Source of the DNA: an uncultured delta proteobacterium
Lineage (GTDB): Bacteria; Desulfobacterota; Desulfomonilia; UBA1062
Direction of reading: 5' to 3'
Assembly: GCA_963798485.1 (NCBI GenBank)
Contig: CAWCTR010000009.1
Location: forward strand, 48,721-112,720
Length of the DNA stretch: 64,000 nucleotides
In this document: positions 23,125 through 41,757 of the stretch, piece by piece
How the letters are laid out: each line of letters starts with the position of its first letter
Numbering within the stretch: position 1 is the first letter of the stretch
The notes under the pieces: model-generated
Database searches by the model: none
What the model was told of the DNA's origin: nothing
What the model saw: only the letters and a program-made list of their open reading frames with translations
Program-made: the position numbers and the translations under genes

Positions 23125-23320
23125 GGTTTTCTTTATAGCAATCACATACGATAGGAAAGTTGATTCCTGCTATATCTTCCCAGTTATATGATGCTCAGAA
23201 ACTGATGATTTTGGAAATAAATCTATGCCAAGGGGCATGAATACTCAGAGTGCCGATTTTGTCACGTGATCTATGGTTTTGAAAATCCCAACTCAGTTCG
23301 ATGCCTCTGGCACATTATCT
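23125..23320 (+). repeat. Dispersed repeat family copy R1 (with duplicated tctatg...tggcac sub-block)
   Basis: gaaactgatgattttgg...tctatg...cagag; 23271-23313 is near-identical to 36632-36674. Confidence 0.7.
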
Positions 23321-23699
23321 CCAGTTAGAGTCAACTAGTTATTACTTCATTCCAATTATTGCACAAGGATCATAATGTTATAATGTTGAAGGTCGATTAA
23401 CCATTATTGCTTAATGCAAAAGCATGACTCAGAGGGACTATGTTTTTATTTTTTTATAATTGCTTGAGCACAAGTGGAGTAAGATGTACTTATACTTATA
23501 CCACCTTGAGGAACCCAGCCTTGCTTTATTTCTTCATTTACTAGTCCTTCTAGTCTTTTAATAGCATCTTCATAATCTTTTCCAGAATATGTGGTGAGAA
23601 TTTTGTATTGCATGGTCTACCTCCAATTATAATCTGGTGTAATATTGTGCCAGTCGTTTTGGGGGACCATTATATCATGAGCTTTGTATCAGATCTATT

Positions 23700-23830
23700 T
23701 CAGAGATTATATTTCTTCGATTTCATCACGGTTTTGAGAATGCTGAAAACTGATGATCTTAAGTTCAAACCTATGCAGCAGGCGCTCTATATCAGAGCAT
23801 CAAGCGTGGCACGAAATCTTCACTTAAAGA
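23700..23830 (+). repeat. Dispersed repeat family copy R2
   Basis: cttcgatttcatcacggtttt...gaaaactgatgatctt...aaacctatg...gtggcacgaaat; shares its first ~20 nt with R8. Confidence 0.8.
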
Positions 23831-23881
23831 GTGTTATTTGTGTAATGTCTGTTAGTGTTTTTTTAGTTTCACGTAGTTAAT

Positions 23882-24688
23882 TCAAAAACGGATATGAGCC
23901 CCGAGAGCAATATTGCCATGTCCTATACTGACCTCAGGTTGAATATCGTTATCCAAGCCCATGAATGCATTATGGAAGAAGGCTGCCATGAAATTACCTA
24001 AAGCAAAACCCGCCAGCACATCCGAAGGATAATGCTTTTGGGCCTCCACCCGAGCCCAGCCTGTGCCAAGCGATACGGTGTACAGGGAAGCATCAGCTAT
24101 CCACCTGACCGGATCTGGCATGTCGATAGATTTAAGGTTGAGAGTTGCAAGTCGTGTGGAAACAGCAGCATGGGAAGCATGCCCTGAGGGCATGCTGTAG
24201 TAATCGGATCCATCCGGGCGAAGGCGATGTGTTGCATCCTTGAAAGATGTGGTGGACAGGCTAGTCGCTCCAATGGCTGCGGCATCCACAGCGAAGCCCT
24301 TTGTTTTGTTGCTCATCCACTCCTGTGACGTATCGCCGCTTGGTGTAGCTAAAAAGCTTGCCACATAAGCACCAGTGGCGATCCCTGCGAGCACGTTACT
24401 CGCATTCGCAGCACTGTCCTGGGAACCGAAAACGGGATTGTGTTCAGAAGCATAATGCGAAATCCTGCGGTCAAAGTCACGGTATTGAAGCGCTAAGGCC
24501 GTTACACAAGGCAACCAGACATCCAGTGATGTCACTGCATCTAAGGCTGAATTGCCTGCCTTTTTCCATCCTGGAGTTATGGTAGCATCCTGTCCCCACC
24601 CCCGACCAGTGTTAAGAGTTCCACAGGCAGGGAGTAATCCGAGGATGAATAGACCAGCAATAAATAGATAACTCAAATGGAGTTTCAT
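23882..24688 (-). CDS. PAP2-family phosphatase lipoprotein
   Basis: Lipobox LPAC; K...RP, PSGH and ARV...HYPSDV motifs. Confidence 0.9.
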   Translation of the reverse strand: MKLHLSYLFIAGLFILGLLPACGTLNTGRGWGQDATITPGWKKAGNSALDAVTSLDVWLPCVTALALQYRDFDRRISHYASEHNPVFGSQDSAANASNVLAGIATGAYVASFLATPSGDTSQEWMSNKTKGFAVDAAAIGATSLSTTSFKDATHRLRPDGSDYYSMPSGHASHAAVSTRLATLNLKSIDMPDPVRWIADASLYTVSLGTGWARVEAQKHYPSDVLAGFALGNFMAAFFHNAFMGLDNDIQPEVSIGHGNIALGAHIRF

Positions 24689-24770
24689 AATTGTATATGA
24701 ATAAAACCTATATGTAAAATTTCAAGAGCTTATTATATTGAAAACTACTTTCTATCTTATTAGTAATTCA

Positions 24771-25280
24771 ATGAAGGTGGCTGGTATAAAACCTTGGGAA
24801 GTGATCATTATCCCTGTACTCTTCTTTGCCACAACATCAGCACATGCAGATGGTGTATTTCTTGAAGGTGGACTTGGTTTCCAGTTCTCAACGGATTCTC
24901 AAGCCATGTTCCTCAACTATCATATCGACTCATCCCCAATTTTTGGGCTTGAGAGCTTTTATGATTTAGAACTCGGTTCCTGGAATGGACAGAATCACAA
25001 TGATGCGATCATTCTTGCCAAGGGAATGTGGTGGGATCTGCCTAAGAATACCTATTTCAGCTTTGAGCCTGGTGGTGCCTACATGGTAAAGACATCAAAC
25101 AATCTGGGCACACATCTTCAATTTGCATTCAGATTTGCTCTAGGTATGAGAACAGAAAAAATTGATTTCTCGATTGGTTATAGACACTTCTCTAATGGTG
25201 CAAAGGTTTTCCATTGGACAGATCCATCTAATAATAACGGTGAAAATTTCATTACACTCCAGATAGGCTACCTTTTATAA
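24771..25280 (+). CDS. Outer-membrane acyloxyacyl hydrolase / lipid A 3-O-deacylase (PagL-like)
   Basis: Signal peptide, LGTHLQF, YRHFSN catalytic motif, beta-barrel-type C-terminus; start uncertain. Confidence 0.8.
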   Translation: MKVAGIKPWEVIIIPVLFFATTSAHADGVFLEGGLGFQFSTDSQAMFLNYHIDSSPIFGLESFYDLELGSWNGQNHNDAIILAKGMWWDLPKNTYFSFEPGGAYMVKTSNNLGTHLQFAFRFALGMRTEKIDFSIGYRHFSNGAKVFHWTDPSNNNGENFITLQIGYLL

Positions 25281-25423
25281 TTCAAGCGAACAAGAACTAA
25301 GTCTTGTTTCAAAAGTTCGAAGGCATATATTCACAGTAGATCAAATTTTCTAAAATATAGAATATTAGAATAGAGATCTCTTCGATTAAAATAGGTAACC
25401 CCAAACATAGATTATGAACCATT

Positions 25424-25480
25424 GATAACTGCGATAAACTGGCGCTTTCCAAAGGCCCTAAAATCGATGATCTTGGTTTG
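25424..25480 (+). repeat. Dispersed repeat copy R3, interrupted by the group II intron
   Basis: gataactgcgataaa...aaaatcgatgatcttggtttg; repeat-like sequence (ctatg...cagag) resumes near 25846. Confidence 0.8.
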
Positions 25481-25837
25481 GTGTGTCACGAATGCCGCGA
25501 GGCAATGCTGTGTAAGAGATGAGGGAAGGTCCCTCGGCGCCGGTTTACAGGAGCAGGCTTCAAACCGCCTTAAGCTGCGATGGTAAAGAGCCATGGTGGT
25601 GAGCGTTAGGGGAAATGGCACAAGAATTAAAATGCGTCACGGTGAGTATCGGAGAGACGAGCGAAAGCGAACCAATCGATGAGGCATCGAAAGATCATGG
25701 ATGATGTCAAAACCAGGGTCCCAAACCAACTCTGGGAACAGCTCAGAGGAAACCTGTTTACTGTCTGAGTGGCATCCGGTGTATAGATGGCGTGAATCCG
25801 ATACGGGCTTTTACACGGAACGTGAGAACCTGTCGTC
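25481..25837 (+). mobile_element. Group II intron 5' fragment (domain I, class D/RmInt1-like), no RT ORF
   Basis: Starts GTGTG; typical domain I text (ggtggtgagcgttagggga, gagcgaaagcgaacc, ggcatccgg, ggaacgtgagaacctgtcgtc); EBS1 CAAACCA and EBS2 AGATCAT pair with the upstream exon. Confidence 0.85.
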
Positions 25838-26005
25838 TGGAGTCACTATGAAAAGCTATATTCAGAGAGCATAGATGCATGGTTAACGTCGCCCGATGAT
25901 ATATTCAATTCATCAAGACCTTGGATAGCCTCAAAACGGCTGAACTCTAACTTAAAAAGTGGTACAAGTATTGGTGGCCGGTCACATATGATGATGGGAT
26001 ATTAA

Positions 26006-26599
26006 ATGGTACGAATAAGTATCCGGAATCTTTTGATTGTTATAACAGTTGTACTCTGGTTGGATCCGACATCTGCCATATCAAGTGAATGGTCTCCTCC
26101 CGAGACCACAACCGATTGGATGAAGTTTACGAGTGGCATGGTCAGTTGTATTGCTGCTCATGAATTGTCACATGTTTTGGTTGCTCTAGAAAGCGGATAT
26201 ACAATCCATCATGATGGTTTATCGATTACCTATTCGCCGGAATTTAGATCTCGTGCCGATCATCTCCGCATCGCTTCAGCAGGTCTTCAGGGACAGTGGA
26301 TAGCATCCGAAGCTGCCTTTGCAGCTGGTGGGAAAGAGGGTAATTTTACGTCTGGGATTATAAGTGGGCACCTCGCCATAACGCTTGCGTATATCGTTGT
26401 GCTCAGGAACCACCCAGAAGGCGATACCGTTGGAATAGCCTCAGCAAGCGGCCTTAACGTCAATCAGGTTGTTTTCCTCGCTGCCCTACCAGCAGTTCTT
26501 GATGCCTGGCGTCTCTTCGGCAATGAAGTTCCGAAGTGGGTGCCTGTCCTTTCCCTCGCCCTCAAGGGCGCGGAGGCTTCATGGGTGTGGACGTTCTAA
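26006..26599 (+). CDS. Hypothetical membrane/secreted protein with HExxH motif
   Basis: N-terminal hydrophobic segment; AAHELSH; IASAG. Confidence 0.75.
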   Translation: MVRISIRNLLIVITVVLWLDPTSAISSEWSPPETTTDWMKFTSGMVSCIAAHELSHVLVALESGYTIHHDGLSITYSPEFRSRADHLRIASAGLQGQWIASEAAFAAGGKEGNFTSGIISGHLAITLAYIVVLRNHPEGDTVGIASASGLNVNQVVFLAALPAVLDAWRLFGNEVPKWVPVLSLALKGAEASWVWTF

Positions 26600-26780
26600 C
26601 TCGCATCTCCTATGAGCTATATTCAACCGAACAATCCTGCATCTTGAGATATTTTAGCAATCAGAGAGTCTTGAAATTAGTTTAGCTCCATAGAAGATAT
26701 CATTTGCCGATCTCAACGAGTGGGTGACAGTTCCAAACTGAATATATCTATAAGGAATTGAAGCTCCAGCCAGACTGAAT

Positions 26781-26955
26781 ATAACTGCGATAAATCGGTG
26801 GTTTCAAACGGACAAGGAAGAGTAGATGTTTTGTTTCGAAATCTTCGGTATGGGCAAAGCGTGACGATTATCACCATTATCATTAGTTTCTCAGGACATA
26901 TGGAACCGATTGATTTTATCGCATAATCTACAGTCCAGATGATTAGCTCCTGATA
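26781..26955 (+). repeat. Dispersed repeat copy R4
   Basis: 26781-26869 matches 34977-35065 at 87 of 89 nt. Confidence 0.9.
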
Positions 26956-26998
26956 CCACTTTGCGATTTAATGATGAATTCAGAATTACTTATCAGTG

Positions 26999-28090
26999 TT
27001 AGGGGTTTCCGACCTTTGAAGCCAAGTCCATGGCCAGTTTTCTGAGTATAGTTGCTTCTTCGAGACCATCGATAAAGCGTTGAGGGATGCCAGAAAAACC
27101 TGTTTGGGCAGCGACAAGGGCTCCGGTGAGGATTGCACGCTCCTGGTTTTGTCCCCCGCCATTGATAGCATGGAGCACTGCAGATTCGAAATCGTTGTGG
27201 AACCGTGCAGCAAGGTAGTAGGCTGCAGGAAGCTGGTGGTAAATAGCGCAGGGCATACCGTAAACGATTGACACCTTCCACGCAGGTTCTATACATATAC
27301 TCGGATCTGCTGCAGCTTCGGCCATATAAGATGGTGTAAGCAGGGCATCCGGCGAGGCAAACCGACCCGCACGGGGAGGGTCCGGATCACCGGGGAGGGG
27401 CGGCTGGAGGTTTTCTCGGGTCACTGCATGAAAAGGCAATTCCCCGCTATGAACCATTTCCATGAGTTTCATTGACAGTTTCCTGTCGAGCGTATGCCCC
27501 TGAACCACTAGACTCAGCACGGCGCAGAATGCAACTGTCAAGGAGATCAAGATATCATCTGACTGCGTAAGGATGGTATTGCTGGTTACGGCAGATGCGA
27601 GCCGGGCAGGTTGAAAAGCATAACGCACAGCAATGGCAAGGCAGCGATCGAGTGCTTCAGTGGTGTCCGCATGGCCTCCGGTCTGCCCCCAGGGCAGGCC
27701 CTGCTGCACACGACGCCTCCATGCCTCCCTGATTGACTGGCTGGTATATTGCCCCGGGCCATTCACCGGTGTCCCGTCAAGAAGAGGAAAGAGCTCCTCA
27801 TCCATCCGGCGGCAGAAATCCGCTTCGTCGTAACCACCGCAATCGACAAGGGAGCGGACCATGAGTTTCAGGATGAAACCTTCCTGGGAAAGTTGACCTG
27901 CCTTGAGTCCGTCGTGGTATCGACCGGGTTTGGGATCGGTATAGCCAGTGATCCAGTCACCATAGTCGTGGTGAAGTTCAGCGAGACTGTAATACCAGTG
28001 AGGACCCAACGCCATGGCATCGCCTATAAAGGCCCCCATGATTGCACCGGCAGCACGGTCTTTGATTCTGCTTTGGTCTGTCATATCCAC
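26999..28090 (-). CDS. ADP-ribosylglycohydrolase family protein
   Basis: GAIMGAFIGDAMALGPHWYY, AINGGGQN...AILTGALV. Confidence 0.88.
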   Translation of the reverse strand: MDMTDQSRIKDRAAGAIMGAFIGDAMALGPHWYYSLAELHHDYGDWITGYTDPKPGRYHDGLKAGQLSQEGFILKLMVRSLVDCGGYDEADFCRRMDEELFPLLDGTPVNGPGQYTSQSIREAWRRRVQQGLPWGQTGGHADTTEALDRCLAIAVRYAFQPARLASAVTSNTILTQSDDILISLTVAFCAVLSLVVQGHTLDRKLSMKLMEMVHSGELPFHAVTRENLQPPLPGDPDPPRAGRFASPDALLTPSYMAEAAADPSICIEPAWKVSIVYGMPCAIYHQLPAAYYLAARFHNDFESAVLHAINGGGQNQERAILTGALVAAQTGFSGIPQRFIDGLEEATILRKLAMDLASKVGNP

Positions 28091-28227
28091 CTCTGGTTTA
28101 TTTCAATCATGTTTATCAGTCTCATGAACTCAAAAGAATGCATCCGGTCTTGCTATCAATGCTTGTATGCAGGTTTGTCCGGAGAAATTGAGCGGTATCA
28201 TGCTTGTATTTGGTGATAAGCTCATGA

Positions 28228-30321
28228 TTATTGTCGCTGCGCCTTGCTTAAACGGCACATGAAGCTTCTGCTGGTGGATGTCCCAGTAACCCTGCCCCTC
28301 CGGTCATCCTCGGTAAGCGTGTTAAGGTTGCATCGCATGTCATGATCGCCCCATCCCCAGGCAAGCTGAATTGTGCCCGGCCGCACAGTGGTTGAGATTC
28401 TCGCTGCCATTTCGATGGCGCCTTTCGGAGATTCAATCCGCACGGAATCGCCCTCTGTCAGGTTGTAACGCTGGGCATCATCGGGATGGATATCGATAAC
28501 ACAGCGCGGACCGGCCTGAAGCAGGGAGGGGATGGTGCGAAACTGCGAGTTGGTGAAGCAGATGTCGCGGCTTCCGCTGATTCCCAGTACGGGATAGTGT
28601 TCGCTCTGATCTGAAAAGCTAATGGGGTCACCGTCCAGGCCTTGTTCGAACGGCACACCCGGTAATCCGGCCTTAGCCAGGCGCCTTGAGAAGAATTCGA
28701 CCTTGCCCGATGGAGTCCTGAATGGCTCCTCCAGGTATTTTTCGTAGCGCAAGCTCTCTATCCGCAAGCCATTGCCGTTCTGCCGCAGTTTTTCCACCGT
28801 CACCCCAGCGGGTTCCAGCTGATAATCTATGGCATCCTCTGCACTTTCCCAGGGAAATTCGGCGGCAAAACCGAGCCTACGTCCCAACTCAAAGATGATC
28901 CGCCAGTTCGGCCACGAATCATCAACCGGTTCGATGACTGCATTTTGCAGGAACATCGGATTGTTGCGGATGGAGGAACGGTTGAGCTGGGTCGTTTCAA
29001 AACAACTGGCGGCCGGGAGAACAATATCGGCCAGTTTTGCCGTCTCGGTCAGAAACATGTCAATCACCACCAGGGTTTCCAATTTGCCGAAGGCAGCTCG
29101 AGTCCGGATGGAATCGGCCATGGTTACGAGGGGATTTCCTGACTGGACCACCACCATCTTCAGCGGATAGGGGTATCCATCCAGAATTGCATCGATCAGG
29201 CAGCCCTGAACCTGGTTGCCCCAGGTGTCGCTGAAAGTGTTGAACAGGGGATAGTCACGGGTGATGGGAACAGTGCCATCCGGGAGTCGGTCCTTTAACT
29301 GGATGTTTCTCACCGGTATCGGTTGCGGTAGAACATCGCCGCCTGTTTTGTCAAGATTTCCGGTCAAGGCACGTAACATGGCGATGCTCCTGGTGGTGTC
29401 GAAGACCTCGCGGTGCATGTCCAAGCCATTACCATCGATGATTGAGGAGGGTCCGCACGTGGCATACAGACGGGTAGTCTGCCTGATCTGATCCGCTGTC
29501 AGCCAGATTTTTCCGGCAACCTCATCGGTGGGATATCGTGCTGCCACCTCTTTGAGCGCATCAAAACCAATGGTATGGCGCTCGACAAACTCAGTGTCAT
29601 ACCAGCCTTCCCTGATGATCTCGTTGATCATGGCCATGGCCAGCAGGCCGTCGTGGCCTGGCTTGATCTGTAGCCAGAGGTCGGCCATGTGGGCAAGGGA
29701 GGTCTTCACCGGGTCAATGACTATTAGTGTTGCCCCGTGCTCTTTTGCATAGTGGATAGATTCCGCCGCGCCCAGAGCAGTGTTCCGATCGTTCTTACCC
29801 CAGACAAGGATACACTGGGAGTTCTTCGCCTCCGGAAAGGCCATGGCCCCATAGGTAAAAGAATGGGCAAAATCCCTTGCCACAAAGCAGACGGAACCAT
29901 TACCGATCGTATTGGGGGAGCCGAAGAGATTCATTAGACGGTTGGGATAATCCCAGGGTGCGCCCCAGTCGGCGGCCATGCCCCGCAGCCAGGCCACCGA
30001 ACGCGACCCGGATTCTTCCCGATGACGGAGAAACCTCTGTGCCACGAGATCAAGGGCTTCATCCCAGCCTGCCTCGCGGAAGCCCGAACCCTCACCCTTT
30101 TTGATCAGTGGAGTTTTCAGGCGCCGGGGTGAATAAACGATATCAGGGGCAGAATCTAGCTTGGGGCACTGGAGCCTTTTTTCAGGGGGGAGGAAGGATT
30201 TCCGCCGGGCCGATATAAGGTGGCCACCAGTCACCTCGGCCTCTATGGGACAGCAGGCGGAACAGAGACGGCAGACTGTATCATAGATCATCTTTTTCCT
30301 CCTATCGTATAGCGTAGACAT
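28228..30321 (-). CDS. Molybdopterin-dependent oxidoreductase (acetylene hydratase/DMSOR family)
   Basis: CRLCSACC...CPK FeS motif, GSVC ligand region, ADIVLPAA, TPSGKVEF, IHPDDA; start may be 30291. Confidence 0.9.
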   Translation of the reverse strand: MSTLYDRRKKMIYDTVCRLCSACCPIEAEVTGGHLISARRKSFLPPEKRLQCPKLDSAPDIVYSPRRLKTPLIKKGEGSGFREAGWDEALDLVAQRFLRHREESGSRSVAWLRGMAADWGAPWDYPNRLMNLFGSPNTIGNGSVCFVARDFAHSFTYGAMAFPEAKNSQCILVWGKNDRNTALGAAESIHYAKEHGATLIVIDPVKTSLAHMADLWLQIKPGHDGLLAMAMINEIIREGWYDTEFVERHTIGFDALKEVAARYPTDEVAGKIWLTADQIRQTTRLYATCGPSSIIDGNGLDMHREVFDTTRSIAMLRALTGNLDKTGGDVLPQPIPVRNIQLKDRLPDGTVPITRDYPLFNTFSDTWGNQVQGCLIDAILDGYPYPLKMVVVQSGNPLVTMADSIRTRAAFGKLETLVVIDMFLTETAKLADIVLPAASCFETTQLNRSSIRNNPMFLQNAVIEPVDDSWPNWRIIFELGRRLGFAAEFPWESAEDAIDYQLEPAGVTVEKLRQNGNGLRIESLRYEKYLEEPFRTPSGKVEFFSRRLAKAGLPGVPFEQGLDGDPISFSDQSEHYPVLGISGSRDICFTNSQFRTIPSLLQAGPRCVIDIHPDDAQRYNLTEGDSVRIESPKGAIEMAARISTTVRPGTIQLAWGWGDHDMRCNLNTLTEDDRRGRVTGTSTSRSFMCRLSKAQRQ

Positions 30322-31240
30322 AATGACTGCGGATCAGCTCGAAATGGTTGCTGTGTGTCCGAATTTTCCACCAGACGTGACCGTGGCGTTCGACCTGCCA
30401 AAGGGGGGCAAGGACACTAGTTTTCTCCTCAAGAAGAGCAATGACATTCTCCTTGCCCCGTCCGGAAAAGATTCCGTCAAGCGTGCCACCCAACCAGCTT
30501 TCCGGATCGGCCACCTCGGTCGACCATGAAAAGGGATCGGAAAACAGAAATTGCGCATCTTTTACTCTTGCCACACGATTGATTTCAGTCAGATGGGTCA
30601 AGGGGTTCGGCACCTTGTCGACGATATTGAGGGAGGAAACCGAGGAAAACAATCCAGATCGAAAGGGCATCGCCTGCGCATCGCCCACGATAAATTCGGT
30701 GTTCTGCGTTTTCCAATCTTCCGGAAAAGTGAGCGTTACCTGCCGTTTCAGTAATCCCTCTTCCGGAAGTGCGAGGCTCGCTCCTCGGCGGTCCATGAGT
30801 TCCCGCGATGCCCGTATGAAGGAGACGGAGTTGTCGATGCCGACGACAAAGTCGCATTTTTGTGCCATTTCGAATGAAAACCGTCCCGTTGCCGAGCCGG
30901 TATCGAGGCAGGCGCCGGTATGCGGCTTCATCAGGTCCGCCCATGCCCGGTAAGCGTCGGAGGCCTGTTCGTCCTGCAGAAGATCTCCGTAGTGGCTCCA
31001 GAGGTAGGAGGACAGAAGCGGCAGCGTTTCATATCGATTCTTTGCAAGGTCCGCTTCCGAGTGGTTTGGGTCTAAAAAGGCAATGCCGTCCCGGATCGGA
31101 TAATCAGTACGGCAATGTTCGCACCGGAGCTTTCCCTCCACGATATTCTCCGGAGAGGCCTCCACGAGGGTTTCCCGCAGTCGATGTTCCTCTGGAAGGC
31201 AAAGGGGACAGATGAGCATGTCGAGCAGCGCCTTTTTCAT
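30302..31240 (-). CDS. Trm112-like zinc ribbon fused to a SAM methyltransferase
   Basis: LICPLC...CEHC..YPIRDGIA, LDTGSATGR, VGIDNS, VGDA, DPFSW...WLGG; GGAGG RBS. Confidence 0.88.
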   Translation of the reverse strand: MKKALLDMLICPLCLPEEHRLRETLVEASPENIVEGKLRCEHCRTDYPIRDGIAFLDPNHSEADLAKNRYETLPLLSSYLWSHYGDLLQDEQASDAYRAWADLMKPHTGACLDTGSATGRFSFEMAQKCDFVVGIDNSVSFIRASRELMDRRGASLALPEEGLLKRQVTLTFPEDWKTQNTEFIVGDAQAMPFRSGLFSSVSSLNIVDKVPNPLTHLTEINRVARVKDAQFLFSDPFSWSTEVADPESWLGGTLDGIFSGRGKENVIALLEEKTSVLAPLWQVERHGHVWWKIRTHSNHFELIRSHYVYAIR

Positions 31241-31769
31241 CTCTTCCTCCTTGAATGATATCTGGCCGCGAGACCTGGGGAAGCTCAGGCGATCCGACTG
31301 GTACCGGGGCGATGAATCTCTGCCCGGATCGGACTGATAAAACGATACCGTCGAATGAGATCTTGCCTGCATGGAGAGTAGGAAATTTATTTTGATAAGA
31401 ACTTGCTTTCAAGGGAATGGAGTATAGGAAAATTATTCTTGTATGTCAATAAATAGCTGACCATAAAATGTGGGGGTGGGCGTGGTTGATGGGGTAAGGG
31501 ATGTGATGTAGCACTCATCATTGATAAGGCAGCCGAGCTGGATCTGATAGAACAGGCATCATGGATTGAGGTTGAGCGTCTTATGATGGGTATCAAGAGG
31601 GGAAAAGGGGTTGCGCACTGGCTAGAGATCTGCTTCTGCTACCCCTTCAAGCTTAGGTATTCCAGAGTATAGATTTTTTGGTAATCATAGCAAATGGTGG
31701 GCATGGAAATTATAGATTATAGCTTCCATGCCAGAAGATACGGGTTCTGATTACTAAATGTTTCTAACC

Positions 31770-31935
31770 ATAATCATCGCTTTGTCCAAAGTGAACATAA
31801 CTGCGATAAATTGACGCGTTCGAAAGGCCTTAAAACCGATGATCTTGGTTTGAAACCTATGCTGCAAGGCACTTCATATCATACCGTTGCCACTGGCACT
31901 AACGAAATCTATGCTCTGGAATAACCATTGGCCTT
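31770..31935 (+). repeat. Dispersed repeat copy R5 (most complete unit; intact intron target at 31839-31852)
   Basis: ataatcatcgctttg...ataactgcgataaa...aaaaccgatgatcttggtttgaaacctatg...tggcac. Confidence 0.85.
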
Positions 31936-32082
31936 CGGCACCATCGGCAACCCGGGTACGGTATCGGCTATGATCACCTGCTGGGTGAGCAATGCCTAGT
32001 GCGAAACGCACTGCACACGATGGTTTGCCGAGAGAAATAAGAAACCCGGTACAACCCGCTGATACTCATTATTTCAAGACAT

Positions 32083-32117
32083 TAGAAAAGGGCCCTCACA
32101 TGAGTGCCCTTTTTCTC
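32083..32117. terminator. Terminator-like hairpin
   Basis: aaaagggc-cctcacatgagt-gcccttttt. Confidence 0.55.
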
Positions 32118-32162
32118 TTAAAGGTACTTGGAATGAGCTCTTGCATATATTATTATTCTGTT

Positions 32163-32753
32163 ATGAAAAAAATAATGAGAAGCCTGATTATTTGCATGAT
32201 CCTGTTCGGCATCATACCCCTTTCTAGCTATGCGGCTGCATCGGAGCAGGATTGCCTTGCTGCCATAACAAAAGTTAAACTCAAGCTGCCTGACGATCCT
32301 GTCGCCGCTGCTTCACTGGGCATCACGCAGAAGGACGGGCAAATAACGCTTAATGATATCGATGCCGAGGTAATCATCATCGAGATCTTCAGCATGTACT
32401 GCCCTTTCTGCCAGAGACATGCACCCATGACTAACAAGCTGCAAACAGTAATAGAAACACGCAGCGACACAAGAGGCAAGGTCAGGCTGTTGGGCATCGG
32501 TGTTGGCAATTCACCCTATGAAGTGAAGTTTTTCAAGAAGAAGTACGGCATTCAATTCCCCCTGTTTGATGATGCAAACTCAGCAGTCCTGAACATTCTT
32601 CCCGATATAAGAACGCCATATTATTTCGCCATTAGAAAAACAGGCAGATCCCTGAATGTTTTTTTCACACAACAAGGGGCCTTTGAAGATCCCGAGAAAT
32701 TCCTCAATACCGTGCTGAACAAGTCCAAACAATTACCCGGGAGAAACCAATGA
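32163..32753 (+). CDS. TlpA/redoxin-family thiol-disulfide protein
   Basis: Signal peptide; FSMYCPFC (CxxC); FPLFDD; RTPY. Confidence 0.85.
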   Translation: MKKIMRSLIICMILFGIIPLSSYAAASEQDCLAAITKVKLKLPDDPVAAASLGITQKDGQITLNDIDAEVIIIEIFSMYCPFCQRHAPMTNKLQTVIETRSDTRGKVRLLGIGVGNSPYEVKFFKKKYGIQFPLFDDANSAVLNILPDIRTPYYFAIRKTGRSLNVFFTQQGAFEDPEKFLNTVLNKSKQLPGRNQ

Positions 32754-33358
32754 AGAACCCACGACATCATTTACTTGTTGAGATAATATCCATCTTCTGT
32801 CTTGTCTTTTTCGGCATGCCTGTCCTGCATGCATCCGATGCATTGAAGGATGAAATTTACCAGGTGGGAACGCTCAAACCTATCGACAGTACACTGAAGG
32901 TGAAAGTCGGTGAGATGGCGCCGGATTTCACCCTTATGTCTCTTTCCGGCAAGGCCGTATCCCTGAAGGATTACCTGGGGAAGAAGAATGTCATGCTGTC
33001 ATTCGTGCCGGCAGCCTGGACCCCGGTTTGTTCAGATCAGTGGCCGGGATATAATATCGCAAAGGATGAATTCGACAGTTATAATACGGTTCTGCTCGGT
33101 ATAACAGTGGACAACATACCGACCCTCTATGCGTGGACAAAAGCCATGGGTACCCTGTGGTTTCCGGTGTTATCGGATTTCTGGCCCCACGGGAAAACGG
33201 CCCAGTCCTATGGTGTCCTACGTTCCAGCGGAACAGCGGAAAGGGCGATTTTCATCATCGACAAAAAGGGCCTGGTCCGGTACATCGATGTCCACGACAT
33301 CAACAAGAGACCTCCCCTGGAAACCATCATGGCTGAGCTGGAGAAGCTGAATAAGTAA
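32750..33358 (+). CDS. Peroxiredoxin (AhpC/TSA, AhpE-like)
   Basis: APDFTL, PAAWTPVC, LSDFWPHG, ERAIFIID. Confidence 0.9.
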   Translation: MKNPRHHLLVEIISIFCLVFFGMPVLHASDALKDEIYQVGTLKPIDSTLKVKVGEMAPDFTLMSLSGKAVSLKDYLGKKNVMLSFVPAAWTPVCSDQWPGYNIAKDEFDSYNTVLLGITVDNIPTLYAWTKAMGTLWFPVLSDFWPHGKTAQSYGVLRSSGTAERAIFIIDKKGLVRYIDVHDINKRPPLETIMAELEKLNK

Positions 33359-33611
33359 CGCCTTCTCATCCCAAGAGCAGCTTTTAAGGCGTTTGAAGAA
33401 TTATCTCCACGTTTTCCTGAATAACTCGAACTCGACTTCATGCATCCCAGGATGTTTGTTTATGATGTGAGCAATAAAATAGTTACAACAGATTATGTAA
33501 GGGGTCATTATCTAAAGATTTTTTGACATTGCAATATGATGGGTCTTGTTTTTTGGGGTTACTGCATTAAGATATCATATTTGTAGTAAAAAATTAAGAA
33601 TAGGGGGAAAT

Positions 33612-34184
33612 ATGAAAGGTAAAATATTTTCATCAATCATGGTGTTTTTAATAGCTCTCTTCTTTCAATCTGCTTGCTTATCTGCCGATGAATTTGAAGC
33701 TGGTCTCTGCCAATGGGTGCCGAGGGATATAATTTCCAAAGTCACGGCTATTAATGTGAAAGCCATGGAAATAACCTTGAAAACCTCCCGTGGAAAATTG
33801 ATCACTTTTGCTGTTGATAAAAGTGTGAAGGATCTATCCACCTTCGCTGTAGGTAATAAAGTCAAGGCAAGATATTATATGTCTTTAGCAGCAGAAGTCC
33901 GCAAGCCCACTCCTGAGGAAAAAAAGACTCCATTTGTAAAACTCGATGAAACCTGTCCATTGCCACCCAGGGCAACTCCAGGATCAGAGATAAAGATGTT
34001 TCGAGAAGTTGTAACTGTAAAAGAGTCTGATCCTGACCTTGGTTTTTTATTAATTAAGAAATCAGATGGTAAGGAAGAATGGGTAAACACCAGTGAACAG
34101 GCATTCCCGGTATCTGTAGAAATTGGGAATAAAGTCGTGATGAAATATTCACAGCCTTTTATTATTGCCCTTAAAAAACTTTAA
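33612..34184 (+). CDS. Hypothetical exported protein (OB-fold-like)
   Basis: Signal peptide; long ORF with RBS. Confidence 0.7.
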   Translation: MKGKIFSSIMVFLIALFFQSACLSADEFEAGLCQWVPRDIISKVTAINVKAMEITLKTSRGKLITFAVDKSVKDLSTFAVGNKVKARYYMSLAAEVRKPTPEEKKTPFVKLDETCPLPPRATPGSEIKMFREVVTVKESDPDLGFLLIKKSDGKEEWVNTSEQAFPVSVEIGNKVVMKYSQPFIIALKKL

Positions 34185-34207
34185 ACACCATACAGATACC
34201 GAGATTA

Positions 34208-34240
34208 CCTGGCTCTTGCCTTATTACGCAGGAGCCAGGT
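34208..34240 (+). terminator. Hairpin after the hypothetical gene
   Basis: cctggctcttgc...gcaggagccagg. Confidence 0.55.
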
Positions 34241-34447
34241 TCATAGAATTCTTCGTAAGACCACTCCCGGATAATATACACTTTCAGAAAGTCAAGTAGA
34301 GATGGTGAAAGTGTCAAAGGTCTTCAGAAATTTCCCCTAGTTTTAAATGTCCCACCTCTACTTGACTCATCATATTTCATTGCTATTATAGAAGTATCTT
34401 CTCTGAATTATTCCCCAGAAGAATACTTTGAATAGAGATTTATATTT

Positions 34448-34898
34448 ATGTTTGAACCCAAGAAGATTCTCGTTCCGACAGATTTTTCAGGATATTCAGA
34501 TAATGCACTCAAACAAGCTGTGGACATTGCAGAAAAATTTAATGCAAAGATTGTTCTCTTGCATGTCATAGATGAGAACTTTCTACAGTGTGCAGCAGAT
34601 TATTGTATCAGCAATGATGCTGTTGAACAGTTAAAAAAAGAAAGTATGAAGACATCAGAAGATAAGATTAATAAGACAATTAATACTATTGAAGGGATCA
34701 ACAAAGGTTGACGTCTCCTCTGTAGTTAAGAAGGGGGTTCCTGCTGAGGTTATATTGGATGAGCAGATGAAAAATGGGATCGGTTTGATAGTTATTGCAT
34801 CTCATGGAAAGACTGGCATCTTGAAGCACCTCATTGGTAGCGTTACCGACAAGGTTGTCAGGGCTGCTAAATGCCCAGTTATGGTGATTCGGGCATAG
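34448..34898 (+). pseudogene. Universal stress protein, frameshifted near 34690
   Basis: KKILVPTDFS in frame 1; GVPAEVI...IASHG...GSVTDKVVRAAKCPV in a second frame. Confidence 0.85.
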
Positions 34899-34976
34899 CA
34901 TCGAATTTTTCTTAGTTCCTTCTGGTGTAGATATATTTATCTATGCAGAAGGAAACTATCCTTCAAAAAAGTGTCG

Positions 34977-35070
34977 ATAACTGCGATAAATCGGTGGTTC
35001 CAAACGGACAAGGAAGAGTAGATGTTTTGTTTCGAAATCTTCGGTATGGGCAAACCGTGACGATTGGCAC
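34977..35070 (+). repeat. Dispersed repeat copy R6, left half (continues at 36627-36690 after IS110)
   Basis: Near-identical to R4; rejoining the halves gives tggCACattatc as in R1 and R8. Confidence 0.88.
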
Positions 35071-36626
35071 CCATTAAAAGGCCCCTGTCAATAAAAACAT
35101 AGTTCACCATCGCACTTTTTTTTGCAGGTCTAACGTATAGCCAGCTGGGATCATGCCAACGATTCCCTTTCTGCGCCCTGTTTTTCATTATGCTCAGGTG
35201 ACAGATTACAATCTGCACCAGGCACCCATCGGGTTTTAGACTGCACAGCGAGAGGATGAACCTAGATGAGTAGCCCTCTCAACCCGTACGCCCCTAACAG
35301 CATCTGCTGTCCCAGAAAAATATCGGTTCCTTGCCATGTTCAATTGTAAGTGACACGACAATAGGCTCTTCCGGCCACACCTTAAAGACTCATGGCAAAG
35401 GCAGATCTGAACCATCGGAATTACCTCCACTGGATTCTTGTTTATAAGAGAGGGGTAAACGGCGGAGCAACCACGAAAATGGTTCTTAGCCACCAAACGT
35501 CTGGTCTCGCCGTTTTCCCCTGCTCAGCAAAAGAGCATCTCTTCCTTGAACTCAACGCCATCTCTGAGCATATAGTAGCAGGCCCTGGCAAGCTTGCTTG
35601 CTATGGTCTTGATTGCCACCATCCTGTGAGTTTTCGAAGCCTTCCTTTTGTAGTAGCCGGCAATCTTCGGGGACTGCCTTAGGGAGATAAACGCCGCTTC
35701 AACAAATGCCCAAGCCAGATACCGGTTCCCATTCTTTGCATTGCCTTTGCCCTTGCTCTTCCCGTTCGAAAACCTCCCGGTAGGAACACAACGGCAGTAA
35801 GAGGAGAAGTCTCCCACCCTTGCAAACCGCGAAATATCTCCCACTTCCAGCATGATCGTCATGGCAAGGATGTCACCGATCCCAGGAACCATGTGCAGTT
35901 TCTCAAAAGCATCCCTCGTCTTCACTTCTCTCTTTACCGTCTTCTCGATATTCCTGATGTTCTTCCCGAGAAAGGCTATGGTTTCAAGGCTCGTTGTACC
36001 AAGGAGAACTAAGTGCTCCTCCTTCAATATCCCTTTGATGTCTTCCGATTTAACCTTCCTCAGTGCATTCGCACTCATGTGCACACCGGTGTTCCTCTCG
36101 ATCATGGACTGCAGCGAGATGATATGGGCTGTTCTTTGCTTTACCAGGAATGATCTCTTCCTCAAGAGATCTCGAACCGGTCGCTCTTCCCTGGGATAGA
36201 TATATCCTTCAGGGAGAATGCCGAGAGACATCATCTGCGCAAGCCAGAAGGCATCATGTCGGTCATCCGCATACTTGAGCCCTTTGTACTGCTGTATCGC
36301 TGCAGGATTGGCAAGATGTACACAATCATACCCTGCCTCATTGAGCCCATCCACCAGCCAGTACCAGTTAAAGGTGCTTTCGACAGCTATCCCCCTGATC
36401 TCTTCACGGTAAGGGTTTAGGGTCCAAACGAGTTCTTCCAGGTTATTCTTTACACGCTTCTCGAAAACTCGCTTCATTGTTCCCTTCTCGATCAGCCCTA
36501 TGTACGTGTTCCCTGAATGGAGATCCAACCCGGCATACAGCTCACTCATGACACACCTCCTCCTGAGTTATTGTCTGTATTATAGCCGTGCGATCTTGGC
36601 GAAAGTGCCTTTTAGATGATTATCAC
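35071..36626 (-). mobile_element. IS110-family (IS1111 group) insertion sequence
   Basis: Subterminal IRs TAAAAGGC at 35075 and 36614, CAC core at both junctions, ~450-nt non-coding end downstream of the transposase. Confidence 0.85.
35524..36549 (-). CDS. IS110 family transposase
   Basis: GLDLH, VEST, K..D..DA (DEDD), VPGIG, SNG...GNRYL. Confidence 0.95.
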   Translation of the reverse strand: MSELYAGLDLHSGNTYIGLIEKGTMKRVFEKRVKNNLEELVWTLNPYREEIRGIAVESTFNWYWLVDGLNEAGYDCVHLANPAAIQQYKGLKYADDRHDAFWLAQMMSLGILPEGYIYPREERPVRDLLRKRSFLVKQRTAHIISLQSMIERNTGVHMSANALRKVKSEDIKGILKEEHLVLLGTTSLETIAFLGKNIRNIEKTVKREVKTRDAFEKLHMVPGIGDILAMTIMLEVGDISRFARVGDFSSYCRCVPTGRFSNGKSKGKGNAKNGNRYLAWAFVEAAFISLRQSPKIAGYYKRKASKTHRMVAIKTIASKLARACYYMLRDGVEFKEEMLFC

Positions 36627-37049
36627 ATTATCTATGGTTTTGGAAATCCCAACTCAGTTCGTTGCCTCTGGCACAGGATCAACAGATTATTCACATGGGG
36701 TGGAAAATTTAAACGCTCATTTTTTACAGGCAGTTTTTATCACGCTCAATCACCCCACCTGTCAAAGTGCGGTTAAATCGGCGCTTACAAATATCCCGAG
36801 GATAATTGCAAATAATATTAATACCAACCATTCCATAAGTGGAATATCCTTTTTGTGAGGCGTTCAAGTAACTCATCCTTGTTGTTTAATCCCACATGAT
36901 ATTTAAGGTCGGTTAAAAAGTGCCGGAACTTAAGCATTACGAAAGTGTGGTGGGAACAAAGCCAAGGTCTTTACAGTGCACGTTTGCAATCCAGGAACAC
37001 CATTATAAAGTCAGACTCGGGCAAAGATTTTCTGGACCATCCTCATGGG

Positions 37050-37170
37050 TGATTTCTTCGATTTCTTATCGGTTTTAGGATGTCTGAAAACCGAAGATCT
37101 TGGGCTGAAACATACAGAGCATATCATTTCATACTAAAGCATGACACATGACGTAACGAGATTTATACTT
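37050..37170 (+). repeat. Dispersed repeat copy R7
   Basis: gatttcttcgattt...tcggttttag...ctgaaaaccgaagatcttgggctgaaacatac. Confidence 0.8.
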
Positions 37171-37373
37171 ACATCAGACTCCCTTAAAAATGAATCTGTC
37201 ACCTTTTCTTTCTTTGGCAGATTGTATGATATACTCTATAGCATGTTTCTCCGGGCAGCTTAGGCAAATCTTTTAGGCTTGCCCATGGTTCTTCGTATTT
37301 CATGATAATCCTGCCAAACTCGACGAGCTTGGTCTGAAGGGCCAGGTTGTGAATCTATGAATTCAACTTACCA

Positions 37374-39029
37374 CTAGATTACATCTCCCGCAGCAGCTCT
37401 GCCTGCGGTCCGTCCTGAGAACATGCACCCGCCAAGGAACGTGCCTTCGAGCGCCCTGTAGCCGTGCATGCCCCCACCACCGAATCCCGCAACCTCGCCT
37501 GCGGCATAGACACCAGGAAGTGGTCGGCCGCCGTACATAAGGACGCGGCCTGAGAGGTCGGTCTCAAGGCCGCCCAGGGTCTTGCGGGTGAGGATCCACA
37601 GCCGCACCGCAATCAAGGGACCTGCAGCCGGGTCAAGGATCCGGTGCGGCCTTGCCACTCGGACCAGTTTGTCCCCGAGATAGGCCCGTGCCGCTCTGAT
37701 GGCCGTTACTTGGGCATCCTTGCAGAAGGCATTGGTGATCTCCCGGTCGCGGGCCATCACCTCCCGCTCAAGTTCGGACGGATCGATCAGGTTCTCACCG
37801 GTCAGGGTGTTCATACCCTGCACAAGCTCAGGCAACGTGCTACGGACTATGAAATCTACCCCTCGCTTTTTGAAAGTCTCCACAGGTCCCGGCGCCCCGG
37901 GAAGGACACGGCCTAAGATCATGAGGAGGCTACGGCCAGTGAGGTCAGGATTCTGCTCGGAGCCGGACAAGGCGAACTCGCGGGCAATGATGCGCTGGTT
38001 GAGCAGGAACCACGAATAGTCATACCCTGAGGAGGAGATATGCTTGAGCGCACCCAGGGTGTCGAACACGGGGAACAGTGGAATGGGTAAGCGATGCCCC
38101 ATTGCATCCAGCCACAAAGGTGATGGCCCGCTTAAGATGCGGATGCCGTGGCGGGTCCAGATGGGAGCATAGTTTTGGATGCCCTCGGGGTAGTGCCACA
38201 TCCGGTCCGGGTTGATTATGCGGCCGCCGCTCGCACCAACGATCTCAAGCATTCGCCCATCCACATGGTCAGGCACGCCGGAGATCATGCGTTGCGGTGG
38301 CTCACCCATGTGCCTCGGCCAATTACGGCGCACCAGGTCGTGATTTCCTCCGATCCCCCCGGAGGTGACGATCACCGCCTGGGCACGAAGTGAAAAGTCA
38401 CGTGAGACTACTCGGGAACTAGGGGTACCGCGTTCCGCACTGCTCGGTTCCAACACCTCGCCATAGACGCCTTCCACCACGCCCCCGGTCATGTTCAAAC
38501 TTGTGACACGGTGTCGGAACCGCAGTGTCACAAGGCCCTGTTTTTCTCCCTCATGAACACGACGGATAAATGGCTCCAGCACCCCCGGACCTGTACCCCA
38601 TGTCACATGAAAGCGGGGGACCGAGTTACCAGGTCCGTTCGCCAGGTAACCTCCCCGTTCCGCCCACTGCACAATGGGAAATATGCGCACACCCAGGCCC
38701 TTAAGCCAGGCACGCTTTTCTTCTGAAGCAAAACCCACATAGGCCTCGGCCCACTTACGCGGCCAATAGTCTTCGTCCCGATCAAACCCTGCTGTTCCAA
38801 GCCAGTCCTGCAGTGCCAAGTCGTAGGAATCCCTTATGCCGAGCCTGCGCTGCTCTGGCGAGTTGACGAAGAACAGGCCGCCGAAAGACCAGAAGGCCTG
38901 CCCTCCCAATGAGGTCTCCGGCTCCTGATCCAGCACTATCACCCGGCGTCCGGCACTGACAAGTTCACAGGCGGCTACAAGACCGGCAAGACCCGCACCG
39001 ATTATAATTACATCTGCATCACTGGCCAT
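37374..39029 (-). CDS. FAD-binding dehydrogenase (KsdD-like)
   Basis: GAGLAG, LGGQAFWSFGG, RFHVTWGTG, RKTLGG, LEGTFLGGC. Confidence 0.9.
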   Translation of the reverse strand: MASDADVIIIGAGLAGLVAACELVSAGRRVIVLDQEPETSLGGQAFWSFGGLFFVNSPEQRRLGIRDSYDLALQDWLGTAGFDRDEDYWPRKWAEAYVGFASEEKRAWLKGLGVRIFPIVQWAERGGYLANGPGNSVPRFHVTWGTGPGVLEPFIRRVHEGEKQGLVTLRFRHRVTSLNMTGGVVEGVYGEVLEPSSAERGTPSSRVVSRDFSLRAQAVIVTSGGIGGNHDLVRRNWPRHMGEPPQRMISGVPDHVDGRMLEIVGASGGRIINPDRMWHYPEGIQNYAPIWTRHGIRILSGPSPLWLDAMGHRLPIPLFPVFDTLGALKHISSSGYDYSWFLLNQRIIAREFALSGSEQNPDLTGRSLLMILGRVLPGAPGPVETFKKRGVDFIVRSTLPELVQGMNTLTGENLIDPSELEREVMARDREITNAFCKDAQVTAIRAARAYLGDKLVRVARPHRILDPAAGPLIAVRLWILTRKTLGGLETDLSGRVLMYGGRPLPGVYAAGEVAGFGGGGMHGYRALEGTFLGGCMFSGRTAGRAAAGDVI

Positions 39030-39317
39030 TCATCTTCCTCCTATGGGATACCTTCTTAATTTTCTCTCCCAACGGCTCTTATTTATATAAGTCCTGAAAG
39101 ATTAAAAGGGAGATGACACTTAAAATCTCTCTGCTCCTATGCCTTTTCGGAAAGAGCAGAGAGAAAGACTTCTGGATCTCTCCATGACCTTCCACTCAAA
39201 AACAATTTTCCAGAAATCCCACCAGAGATTTATTAGAAAAGTAGGGGTCAAAGATGATTTTCTAATATGATTGATCTCTGTAATAACTCATCTGCCTCAA
39301 TCTTTGAGTATCAACCA

Positions 39318-39505
39318 TAGATTACTTCGATTTCATCACGGTTTTCAAAAGTCCAAAAGCTGATGATCTTGGTTTCAAATCAATGGTATTCTGGCTACAG
39401 ATTCAAAGCGCCGCTCATGGCACATTATCATCGGTTTCTTGGGACGTGTGGGATCGATGATTTTATTGTATAATCATCGCTTTAGCCTATATGAATAGTT
39501 CTGAT
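39318..39505 (+). repeat. Dispersed repeat copy R8 (one unit plus start of next)
   Basis: attacttcgatttcatcacggtttt...gatgatcttggtttc...tggcacattatcatcgg...cgatgattttattgtataatcatcgc. Confidence 0.85.
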
Positions 39506-39523
39506 CAGTTGCTACGCATCATC

Positions 39524-40267
39524 CTATTGCTCTCCTCTATCGTCCAGGCATACCGAAGAGATATCCGTCTCAAGGGGGAGATCGACAATAAATGTGGTCC
39601 CTGTCCCTATAGAGCTCTCCACCCTGATAGCCCCTTTGTGCTTCATAATAATGCCAAGAGAGATGGACAGACCGAGGCCGGTCCCTTTCCCCGCTTCCTT
39701 GGCGGTGAAGAAGGGCTCGAAAATCTTTTCTCTCTGCTCAGGAGATATCCCGCAACCAGTATCTGCAATGCTGATATGGATACAGCCATCAGATTCCCAG
39801 GTTTTGATGGTGATCTTACCACGGTTATCAATGGCATGGGCGGCGTTCACTAAGAGGTTTATAAATACCTGGCTAAGTTGCTGGGGAAAGCATCTGAGCT
39901 TGGGGATATCACCCAGCTCCATTATCACCTCGGCCTTGTACTTGAGCTCGTTCCAGACAACGGTAAGAGTACTCTCAATGCAGGTACTGATGTCAGAAAA
40001 GACAAGCTCAGGCTCGTCCTTGCGGGAGAAGCTCTTGAGGTCGATCACGATTTTCTTCACCCTGTCCGCACCATCTAAGGACTCGGAGATGAGGTCGAGG
40101 ATATCCTTGAGGATGTAATCAATCTTGAGAGATTTCCTCTTTTCGATAAGGTCCTTGCTGCTGTCCTGACTGCATGAAGCCAGAATATCGTCCTGGTATT
40201 TCAGGTACTCGGTTATCCACTGGGAATATTTCCCCATGGTGTTCAGGTTGCTGGTGATGAATCCAAT
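39524..40267 (-). pseudogene. Sensor histidine kinase C-terminal fragment
   Basis: QVFINLLVNA, DTGCGI, FEPFFT, GTGLGL; begins at IGFITSN, just after the missing H-box. Confidence 0.85.
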
Positions 40268-40812: not shown

Positions 40813-40882
40813 GTCTTGACTATGTTGATCTGCAGGCTATTTACGCTGTCAACATACTACAATTAATCTCAAAGGAGTTTTT

Positions 40883-41723: not shown

Positions 41724-41757
41724 TTTCAGCAATAGCTTTTCATAAAGGGGGTGTACT

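Follow-up and report, generated by a model that had tools for sequence, protein, structure and literature searches.

A truncated group II intron in an interspersed repeat, and an intron lineage with several entry points in that repeat

Introduction

How did a group II intron come to lie exactly inside one copy of a short dispersed repeat, and was the site chosen by base pairing? The question is raised by a 64,000-nucleotide (nt) stretch of DNA, which we call the window, from an uncultured delta proteobacterium of the Desulfomonilia (GenBank assembly GCA_963798485.1, contig CAWCTR010000009.1, positions 48,721 to 112,720), where an intron starting at window position 25481 interrupts a ~130-nt repeat. 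Bacterial group II introns persist by homing into harmless multi-copy sites. A first-pass annotation of the window, made from the letters alone, noted that the exon-binding sites (EBS1 and EBS2) of this intron match the intron-binding sites (IBS1 and IBS2) in the adjoining repeat, and proposed that the intron lineage is adapted to the repeat family. We consider it very likely that the element is what remains of a class-D-like intron that was inserted by reverse splicing into a copy of the repeat, at a site set by EBS pairing, and was later truncated. The strategy, specialisation on a multi-copy site, is known; its form here is new, and the pattern is wider than the first-pass annotation proposed.

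The window holds the dead 5' remnant of a group II intron

The interrupted repeat copy and the intron comprise the following features. Introns related to the window copy are termed family 1.

25416..25480, + strand: 5' half of a repeat copy (model positions 8-72), which is the 5' exon of the intron (nhmmer E 2.1e-13, ending exactly at the intron start)
25467-25473, + strand: IBS2, ATGATCT, within the 5' exon
25474-25480, + strand: IBS1, TGGTTTG, within the 5' exon
25481..25840, + strand: truncated family-1 group II intron, domain I only, ~360 nt (RF01999 match, similarity to relatives ending at 25840, no RF00029 nearby)
25692..25698, + strand: EBS2, AGATCAT, which pairs with IBS2; the letters here vary in relatives in step with the exons
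25722..25728, + strand: EBS1, CAAACCA, in the loop of a 7-bp stem (ccagggt/actctgg), which pairs with IBS1

The intron begins with GTGTG at 25481, directly 3' of ATGATCT-TGGTTTG (25467-25480), and EBS2 and EBS1 are perfect reverse complements of IBS2 and IBS1 over all 14 of 14 positions. The start, coordinates and pairing proposed for this element all agree with the sequence. The full RF01999 model (group-II-D1D4-2) matches 25521-25642 with 95.6 bits against a cut-off of 36 (E 2.9e-18); a 5' GUGYG together with a domain I match to a curated model marks the element as a group II ribozyme, as first annotated. A permissive Rfam scan (E<=10) of 24500-28500 returned no match to RF00029 (domain V/VI) or to other group II models, and no open reading frame (ORF) for a reverse transcriptase (RT) was found downstream of the fragment, which bears out the earlier remark that the RT and the 3' domains are missing.

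Alignments to every relative end at 25840/25841. Because the similarity stops there and neither domain V/VI nor an RT follows, the element is a dead fragment, the ~360-nt domain I of an intron. It is 92-93% identical to copies in two related genomes, G002 and G003, and 86% identical to the copy at C4:162709 of its own genome (G000 denotes the own genome, other G-numbers relatives, L-numbers loci and C-numbers contigs). Contigs of related organisms in public sequencing runs continue past 25841 as an intact intron, and the window diverges at this point. The 165 nt that separate the end of the fragment from the next ORF (26006) occur nowhere else in the genome, and a search downstream of 25840 for the 3' half of the interrupted copy (nhmmer --max, E<=100) gave no match. 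Since that half is missing, the event that removed domains II-VI, probably a deletion, would also have taken the rest of the repeat copy.

A contig mis-joined at 25840, in an organism whose real genome has a complete ORF-less intron, would give the same picture. The assembly consists of 32 contigs with an estimated contamination of 6.96%, and the window stretch is present in no public run. The other family-1 copy in the assembly is, however, only 86% identical and thus too divergent to cause assembly collapse, and the sequence after 25840 is not only unique but continues into an ORF and the next repeat. Truncated or internally deleted family-1 copies are also common in the lineage (C4, the second copy on G002 contig C12, and L069). 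An assembly artefact therefore seems quite improbable to us. The fragment itself, as a dead remnant, has no evident function; its interest lies in the pattern at the level of the lineage.

Family 1 enters the repeat at three points and on both strands

We compiled 19 family-1 copies with a readable 5' junction: two from the genome itself, four from G002 and G003, and 13 from metagenome loci. The metagenome loci come from a scan for the 5'-end pattern, and some of their flanks match G002 copies, so that these are possibly the same insertions. Three loci from a genome-contig scan (L056-L058, four matches) stand outside this census. Sixteen of the 19 copies sit in the repeat, where they use three points inside a 21-nt stretch, on both strands. 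The insertion sites are as follows.

Antisense, after model position ~51/52: 10 of 19 copies; exon end ..GATCATCGGTTTT
Antisense, after model position 63/64: 5 of 19 copies; exon end ..TTTCAAACCAAGA, or ..GGAAACAAAA in the diverged C4 repeat copy
Sense, after model position 72: 1 of 19 copies, the window copy
Unrelated non-coding sequence: 3 of 19 copies (L060, L067, L070); exon end ..GGTCTTAGCTACTA, adjoining an rve-type transposase gene

The one other family-1 copy in the genome, at C4:162709, retains a 102-amino-acid (aa) RT remnant and has no domain V. Among 80 relatives, G002 carries three copies and G003 one, and G015 has a 94-nt fragment. Two of the G002 copies, each ~640 nt long and ORF-less, are complete introns that include domain V/VI; in both the repeat continues on either side at the same model position, as expected of a precise insertion. 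Records that carry the same intron are metagenome-assembled genomes labelled Desulfomonilia or 'delta proteobacterium'. The 5' junction of the window copy is also covered by a 283-nt contig from an unrelated public run (25447-25692, with five differences and two gaps), which lends weak support to the reality of sense insertions.

The target of the window copy is itself frequent. In the window, the 14-mer formed by IBS2 and IBS1 occurs exactly at 25467 and 31839 and with one mismatch at 39363 and 47638, as reported in the first pass, and the copy at 31839-31852 is indeed unoccupied:

31781..31915, + strand: complete unoccupied repeat with the exact 14-mer at 31839-31852 (E 4.4e-30)

At up to two mismatches there are four matches in the window against 0.75 expected, and four were reached in 1 of 100 shuffles. 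The genome as a whole holds five exact copies and 16 with at most one mismatch, all 16 in sense orientation inside repeat copies. Free targets of the window type are thus present, yet only a dead copy was found in the genome.

Exon-binding sites change together with the exons they pair with

The lineage uses five distinct EBS1/IBS1 pairs: CAAACCA/TGGTTTG, TTTTGTT/AACAAAA, AAAACT/GGTTTT or AGTTTT, TCTTGGT/ACCAAGA, and TAGTAGC/GCTACTA. EBS1 complements IBS1 in 12 of the 13 family-1 copies in which both partners are readable. Within each insertion-site group EBS1 is the complement of the final 6-7 exon bases, and EBS2 tracks the exon likewise. ACCAAGA/TCTTGGT and AACAAAA/TTTTGTT, which occur at the same site, differ by a double compensatory change. 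A consensus fold of 14 copies from two intron families places EBS1 in a hairpin loop, and positions 3 and 6 of its stem are compensated between the families. The EBS assignments made in the first pass are right, and the covariation of EBS with IBS is that of group II introns.

One lineage thus shows five EBS1/IBS1 pairings, four of them within 21 nt of one repeat and including a switch of strand. Compensating changes stand behind each pairing, so that the sequences themselves record the steps of retargeting. To our knowledge, clear natural records of a change of intron target are few.

The centre of the repeat is roughly symmetric (AAAAC-YGATGATC-TTGGTTTG), and this symmetry suggests how the strand switch may have come about. 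With GATC flanked by AAACC on one side and GGTTT on the other, either strand can offer the GATC-centred stretch as IBS2 and the heptamer next to it as IBS1, so that few changes in the EBS loops would suffice to redirect an intron to the opposite strand. The window copy is 92-93% identical to the position-51/52 type, and the differences seen between their loops are two substitutions in the EBS1 loop and, in EBS2, a 2-nt deletion with neighbouring changes. As the window type is represented by one of the 19 copies, the direction of this change is one that we infer.

The history that best fits these data would run as follows. An intron enters a repeat copy by reverse splicing, presumably in the course of retrohoming, with EBS2 and EBS1 pairing to ATGATCT-TGGTTTG in the centre of the repeat and thereby setting the site. 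The lineage lives in the repeat in this genus mostly as ~640-nt ORF-less mini-introns, which would need an intron RT supplied in trans. Changes in the EBS loops would have given rise to the sub-lineages that enter at three points within 21 nt, and in the window copy a later deletion would account for the loss of domains II-VI and of the repeat's 3' half.

The introns appear class-D-like

A second intron family occupies the same repeat (see below), and its RT is informative about class. The family-2 RT has 417 aa and consists of RVT_1 and GIIM only, with no endonuclease domain. This is the class D architecture, in which an intron-encoded protein (IEP) of ~419 aa combines RT and X domains but lacks a DNA-binding/endonuclease (D/En) domain. 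PMC4615759 gives the C-terminal motif of class D as LX3AX3PXLF[V/A]HW; the family-2 tail, LGRIAKRNVDLFVLW, has six of its eight specified positions (V for P, L for H). The family-1 RT, at locus L070, likewise has RVT_1 and GIIM, with its C-terminus cut by the end of the locus, and the window copy is without an RT. The family-2 RT is 58.5% identical to that of family 1 and 61.6% identical to the ltrA product of a multi-copy Sinorhizobium meliloti intron whose ribozyme also matches RF01999. To judge from these protein and ribozyme features both families appear class-D-like, which agrees with the class suggested for the element in the first pass.

Class C introns of the IIC-attC type lack EBS2 and insert after an attC stem-loop. 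Here EBS2 is present and covaries, and the target does not fold as a hairpin. EBS2, the RF01999 match and the class-D-like RT relatives together place the intron outside class C.

The repeat is abundant, diverged and shared with related genomes

In the 4.3-Mb genome, a 133-position nhmmer model built by iteration detects the repeat 87 times at E<1e-4 and 105 times at E<=0.01. The copies are 60-85% alike and have inverted end boxes, RTAGATWWC followed by TGCGAT at the 5' end and TGGCACG followed by WWATCTAY at the 3' end. With one copy as BLAST query, the repeat was found in eight of the 80 relatives, seven of the 14 in the same genus and one in a sister genus; at the sensitivity of such a single-copy search it was absent from the other 33 genomes searched of the same family and from the 32 of the other family. 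The first-pass annotation had reasoned that an adapted intron would imply an abundant and long-lived repeat; the 87 matches, the divergence of the copies and their presence in eight of 80 relatives accord with both.

Might the repeat instead have been spread by the introns or derived from them, for example as carried exon flanks, so that the association is not one of targeting? The two intron families and the repeat do co-occur in G000, G002, G003 and G007. On the other hand, only ~10 of the 87 repeat copies are intron-occupied, the unoccupied ones are continuous across all insertion points, and the repeat is present in G004, G008, G010 and G011, in which neither family was found. Entry by different introns at four separate points also fits a sequence that was there beforehand and was targeted independently. 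We regard a spread of the repeat by the introns, or its origin from them, as extremely improbable.

The repeat does not look like a structured RNA or single-stranded DNA (ssDNA) element. RNAalifold on both strands of 37 full copies gave only a local 6-bp hairpin (-3.2 and -0.4 kcal/mol), and a per-copy hairpin is found in one subfamily (z<-1.5 in 11 of 37 for H1, 3 of 37 for H2 and 1 of 37 for the control). A sigma-54 promoter reading of the TGGCACG box was dropped, as the -12 TTGC element is absent in the copies inspected by eye.

Nor does it fall readily into known classes of dispersed repeat. Repetitive extragenic palindromic (REP) sequences and bacterial interspersed mosaic elements (BIMEs) consist of short palindromic units; the repeat has inverted ~14-nt boxes, but its unit is ~130 nt. 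A REPtron, in which such units flank a REP-associated tyrosine transposase (RAYT), was set aside: by coordinates, none of the eight Y1_Tnp matches in the genome lies within ~5 kb of a repeat copy. A miniature inverted-repeat transposable element (MITE) would have terminal inverted repeats, a target-site duplication and an autonomous partner with the same ends. The inverted end boxes of the repeat (RTAGATWWC) partly co-vary within copies, though its outer ends are not sharply defined; its flanks show no consistent duplication, and no partner element was found.

A second intron family and an insertion sequence use other boxes of the same repeat

Family-2 introns start with GTGCG and are 67% identical to family 1 over domain I. 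The genome has eight copies, and all eight lie directly after the 5' box, with exons ending in ..CGATAAA, ..CGATAAC or ..CGATTTC. At least four are ORF-less (~675 nt) and two carry the 417-aa RT. Here too the pairing follows the exon: EBS1 UUUAUCG pairs with CGATAAA and EBS2 AAGUUA with TAACTT, and two copies in G007 have GUUAUCG with the exon CGATAAC. One copy in G003 sits in the same box. In G063, a genome of another family, a family-2 copy (L045) lies elsewhere, in an apparent RT YADD-coding stretch.

The third visitor is an insertion sequence (IS) of the IS110 family, one copy of which interrupts the repeat at 34967 in the window:

35065..36640, - strand: IS110-family IS of ~1576 nt, in the TGGCAC|G box of the repeat at 34967, with a transposase ORF at 35524-36549 (Pfam DEDD_Tnp_IS110 and Transposase_20)

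All five full copies in the genome are at the TGGCAC|G box (the others at C30:65289, C14:160490, C14:379915 and C10:90965), with the triplet CAC at both junctions; four partial matches were left out of this count. The two most conserved boxes of the repeat thus serve family 2 and IS110 as targets, and family 1 uses the centre.

Relatives of family 2 outside the genus were seen in another setting. L055 and L090, on S. meliloti plasmids, and L045 lie inside other RT genes, directly after apparent YADD-coding sequence, which suggests that intron RT genes were an older target of the family-2 lineage. We had considered whether the S. meliloti matches, retrieved from PLSDB, are RmInt1; the best of them are RF01999-positive, but they lie inside another RT gene and not in ISRm2011-2 and so give no support to this identity. 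A separate observation concerns two places in the genome, C18:3063-5047 and C7:265183-267167, where an unusually long (94-nt) RF00029 match runs directly into domain I of another intron type (RF02005 on C7); this second intron comes with an RT of its own, and its domain V follows after 1.9 kb. These arrangements look like back-to-back or nested introns.

How far the specialisation on the repeat extends

Several observations weigh against a lineage adapted to the repeat as a whole, or limit how far the window copy can stand for it. Three of the 13 metagenomic copies (L060, L067 and L070) form a sub-lineage with its own, matching EBS and an unrelated target, and the sole RT-bearing family-1 copy, L070, is one of them. 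Copies in unrelated targets were what the first-pass annotation had named as evidence against its proposal. With the 5' exons tabulated across the genome and its relatives, most copies are in the repeat and some are indeed elsewhere; the proposal stands for the 16 of 19 copies in the repeat, and the specialisation belongs to a sub-lineage and not to the whole family.

The window copy is also the only sense insertion among the 19, and no intact intron with its EBS pair is known. The best public run contains a share of 0.14 of the sampled words of the window stretch, and the four runs that were compared yielded only short contigs of related introns. One metagenome contig, L066, departs from the pairing rule: it has the 5' end and exon of the position-63 site with EBS loops of the position-51/52 type. 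Recombination between copies, a chimeric assembly or relaxed specificity could each account for this. A replication-strand bias was undetectable (31 versus 24 copies by local GC skew, with the skew weak throughout). The putative assignment to class D is based on the architecture of the RT and on a motif that is matched in part.

The idea that the 14-mer is the most conserved core of the repeat had to be given up. Averaged over its columns, the 14-mer carries 0.872 bits of information, where the repeat as a whole averages 0.861. This puts it at rank 60 among 112 windows, and the best-conserved windows are the two end boxes.

Comparison with known systems

The closest precedent is RmInt2 in ISRm17 of Sinorhizobium meliloti. 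According to PMC4615759 and PMC5894124, RmInt2 belongs to class D, lacks an endonuclease, tolerates partial EBS2/IBS2 pairing and has a multi-copy target that it enters in both orientations; as it can occupy either inverted repeat of ISRm17, the lagging-strand template always offers one target. The introns described here resemble it in that related copies enter both strands of one repeated sequence. RmInt2, however, does so with one EBS set and inverted IS copies, whereas here the strands are reached by sub-lineages with different, compensating EBS; in addition, the introns here are mostly ORF-less, and their target is an interspersed repeat that is short and non-coding. The classic specialist on a multi-copy element is RmInt1 (IIB3/class D). 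Its target element is abundant, its ~419-aa IEP lacks D/En, and fragmented copies are common (PMC5894124). It uses a single site inside an IS630-family transposase gene (ISRm2011-2).

For IS110 elements, the REP literature offers a close parallel. In the survey by Tobes and Pareja (2006, PMC1525189), ISPa11, ISPpu9, ISPpu10 and IS621 target REP; their association with an intergenic repeat specific to the species reaches 100% (6/6, 7/7 and 7/7), and a Pseudomonas putida group II intron is REP-associated in only two of nine copies. The five of five full IS110 copies at one repeat box agree with the former. Unlike the latter, the two intron families reported here are near-exclusively repeat-associated, and the repeat, at ~130 nt with inverted end boxes, is not a 35-nt palindrome and has no flanking RAYT gene that we could find.

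ORF-less introns in this genus recall other cases of proliferation. In Thermosynechococcus elongatus (Mohr et al. 2010), ORF-less introns reportedly multiply beside RT-bearing relatives while their targets diverge, and ORF-less proliferation with target divergence is also said to occur in Methanosarcina (Dai and Zimmerly 2003). In contrast to both, the divergence seen here stays in one 21-nt stretch of one repeat family and includes a strand switch. Within the set of papers covered, literature searches on ORF-less group II introns in repeats and on REP turned up no lineage that is restricted to a short interspersed repeat and enters it at several points set by its EBS. The repeat and its visitors may offer a compact natural system for the sharing of safe havens among site-specific elements and for the dependence of ORF-less introns on RTs in trans.

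The remaining comparison is with integrons. IIC-attC introns and IS1111-attC elements use integron attC sites as a common landing pad within co-oriented arrays. The repeat studied here is likewise common to a group II intron lineage and an IS110-family element, and likewise occurs in co-oriented arrays. Unlike IIC-attC introns, the intron has EBS2, an RF01999 match and class-D-like RT relatives, and the repeat fails the attC tests described below; the parallel with IIC-attC introns drawn in the first pass holds as an analogy only.

Co-oriented arrays and the possibility of a cassette system

The interrupted repeat belongs to an array, at one end of which lies part of a recombinase gene:

23156..47711, + strand: 11 co-oriented repeats, at 23156, 23700, 25416, 26764, 31781, 34967, 37045, 39313, 44304, 45958 and 47583 (nhmmer)
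47757..47903, - strand: C-terminal fragment, 49 aa, of a tyrosine recombinase, just past the last array repeat (Phage_integrase E 9.5e-09, profile positions 133-171 of 172)

Neighbouring copies are separated by one to four genes that are unrelated by Pfam content. A second array, of ~14 kb, was found at G002:C12:92203-106638 (L091/L092), between the RACo and CdhD genes, where 12 of 13 repeats are co-oriented and the gene content consists of small accessory genes (Usp, PEP-CTERM, HIT, PilZ, MCP).

So, are the repeats recombination sites? Under this alternative they would belong to an undescribed, integron-like but non-attC gene-cassette system, and the introns and IS110 would be parasites of its different boxes rather than specialists on a selfish repeat. 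The arrays would then delimit small sets of non-syntenic accessory genes placed among housekeeping genes. Co-orientation could arise by strand-specific insertion or by site-specific cassette recombination, and in both arrays (11/11 in the window, 12/13 in G002) it weighs against a plain MITE. So does the mosaic content of the window array, which is non-syntenic in five relatives, its segments mapping to scattered contigs. These features, the recombinase fragment at the array end and the presence of three integron integrases in the genome (C5:12795-13733, C19:228-1175 and C12:6524-7471, scoring 437-460 bits against an NCBIfam cut-off of 265) all speak for a cassette system.

The attC tests speak against it. 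None of the three intI genes has a repeat copy close by: C12 and C19 are without a match to the model, all matches on C5 are more than 100 kb from intI, and self-comparison of the intI regions shows no short repeat array around them. The triplet at the position equivalent to the GTT of R' is variable (GAA, GTT, GTA, ATT, GGA, GTG), compared with the conserved GTTRRRY/RYYYAAC of attC. The ssDNA folds of eight copies have z values from -3.6 to +1.3, one of the eight below -2, with no end-to-end hairpin. Homologues of the would-be cassettes in relatives keep no repeat at the same place, and at three of eight loci there is none within ~1.5 kb. A cassette system is therefore improbable in our view; if real, it would give the integron/attC parasite guild an independent second example, one in which EBS-guided strand switching also occurs. 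Specialisation of an intron sub-lineage on a pre-existing repeat remains the explanation that we favour.

Other features of the array neighbourhood were noted in passing. A tRNA gene lies at 19807-19879, on the opposite side of the array from the recombinase fragment. A 137-nt inverted repeat (45504-45640 / 49616-49752, 89% complementary) encloses ~4 kb that hold two repeat copies and the recombinase fragment. The PAP2-PagL segment at 23882-25345, just ahead of the interrupted repeat, has a paralogue at G000 C17:17904-20849 with 83-89% identity that is also followed by a repeat; this paralogue (89% identity) was considered as an empty site of the intron insertion and rejected, because the similarity ends before the repeat. 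The ORF at 42795-43316 (+ strand) corresponds only to the C-terminal part (209-345 of 347) of glycine/sarcosine/betaine reductase selenoprotein B; its front could lie beyond an upstream in-frame stop read as selenocysteine, or the ORF may be a gene fragment. Finally, a genome of the same genus has a bacterial class A RNase P.

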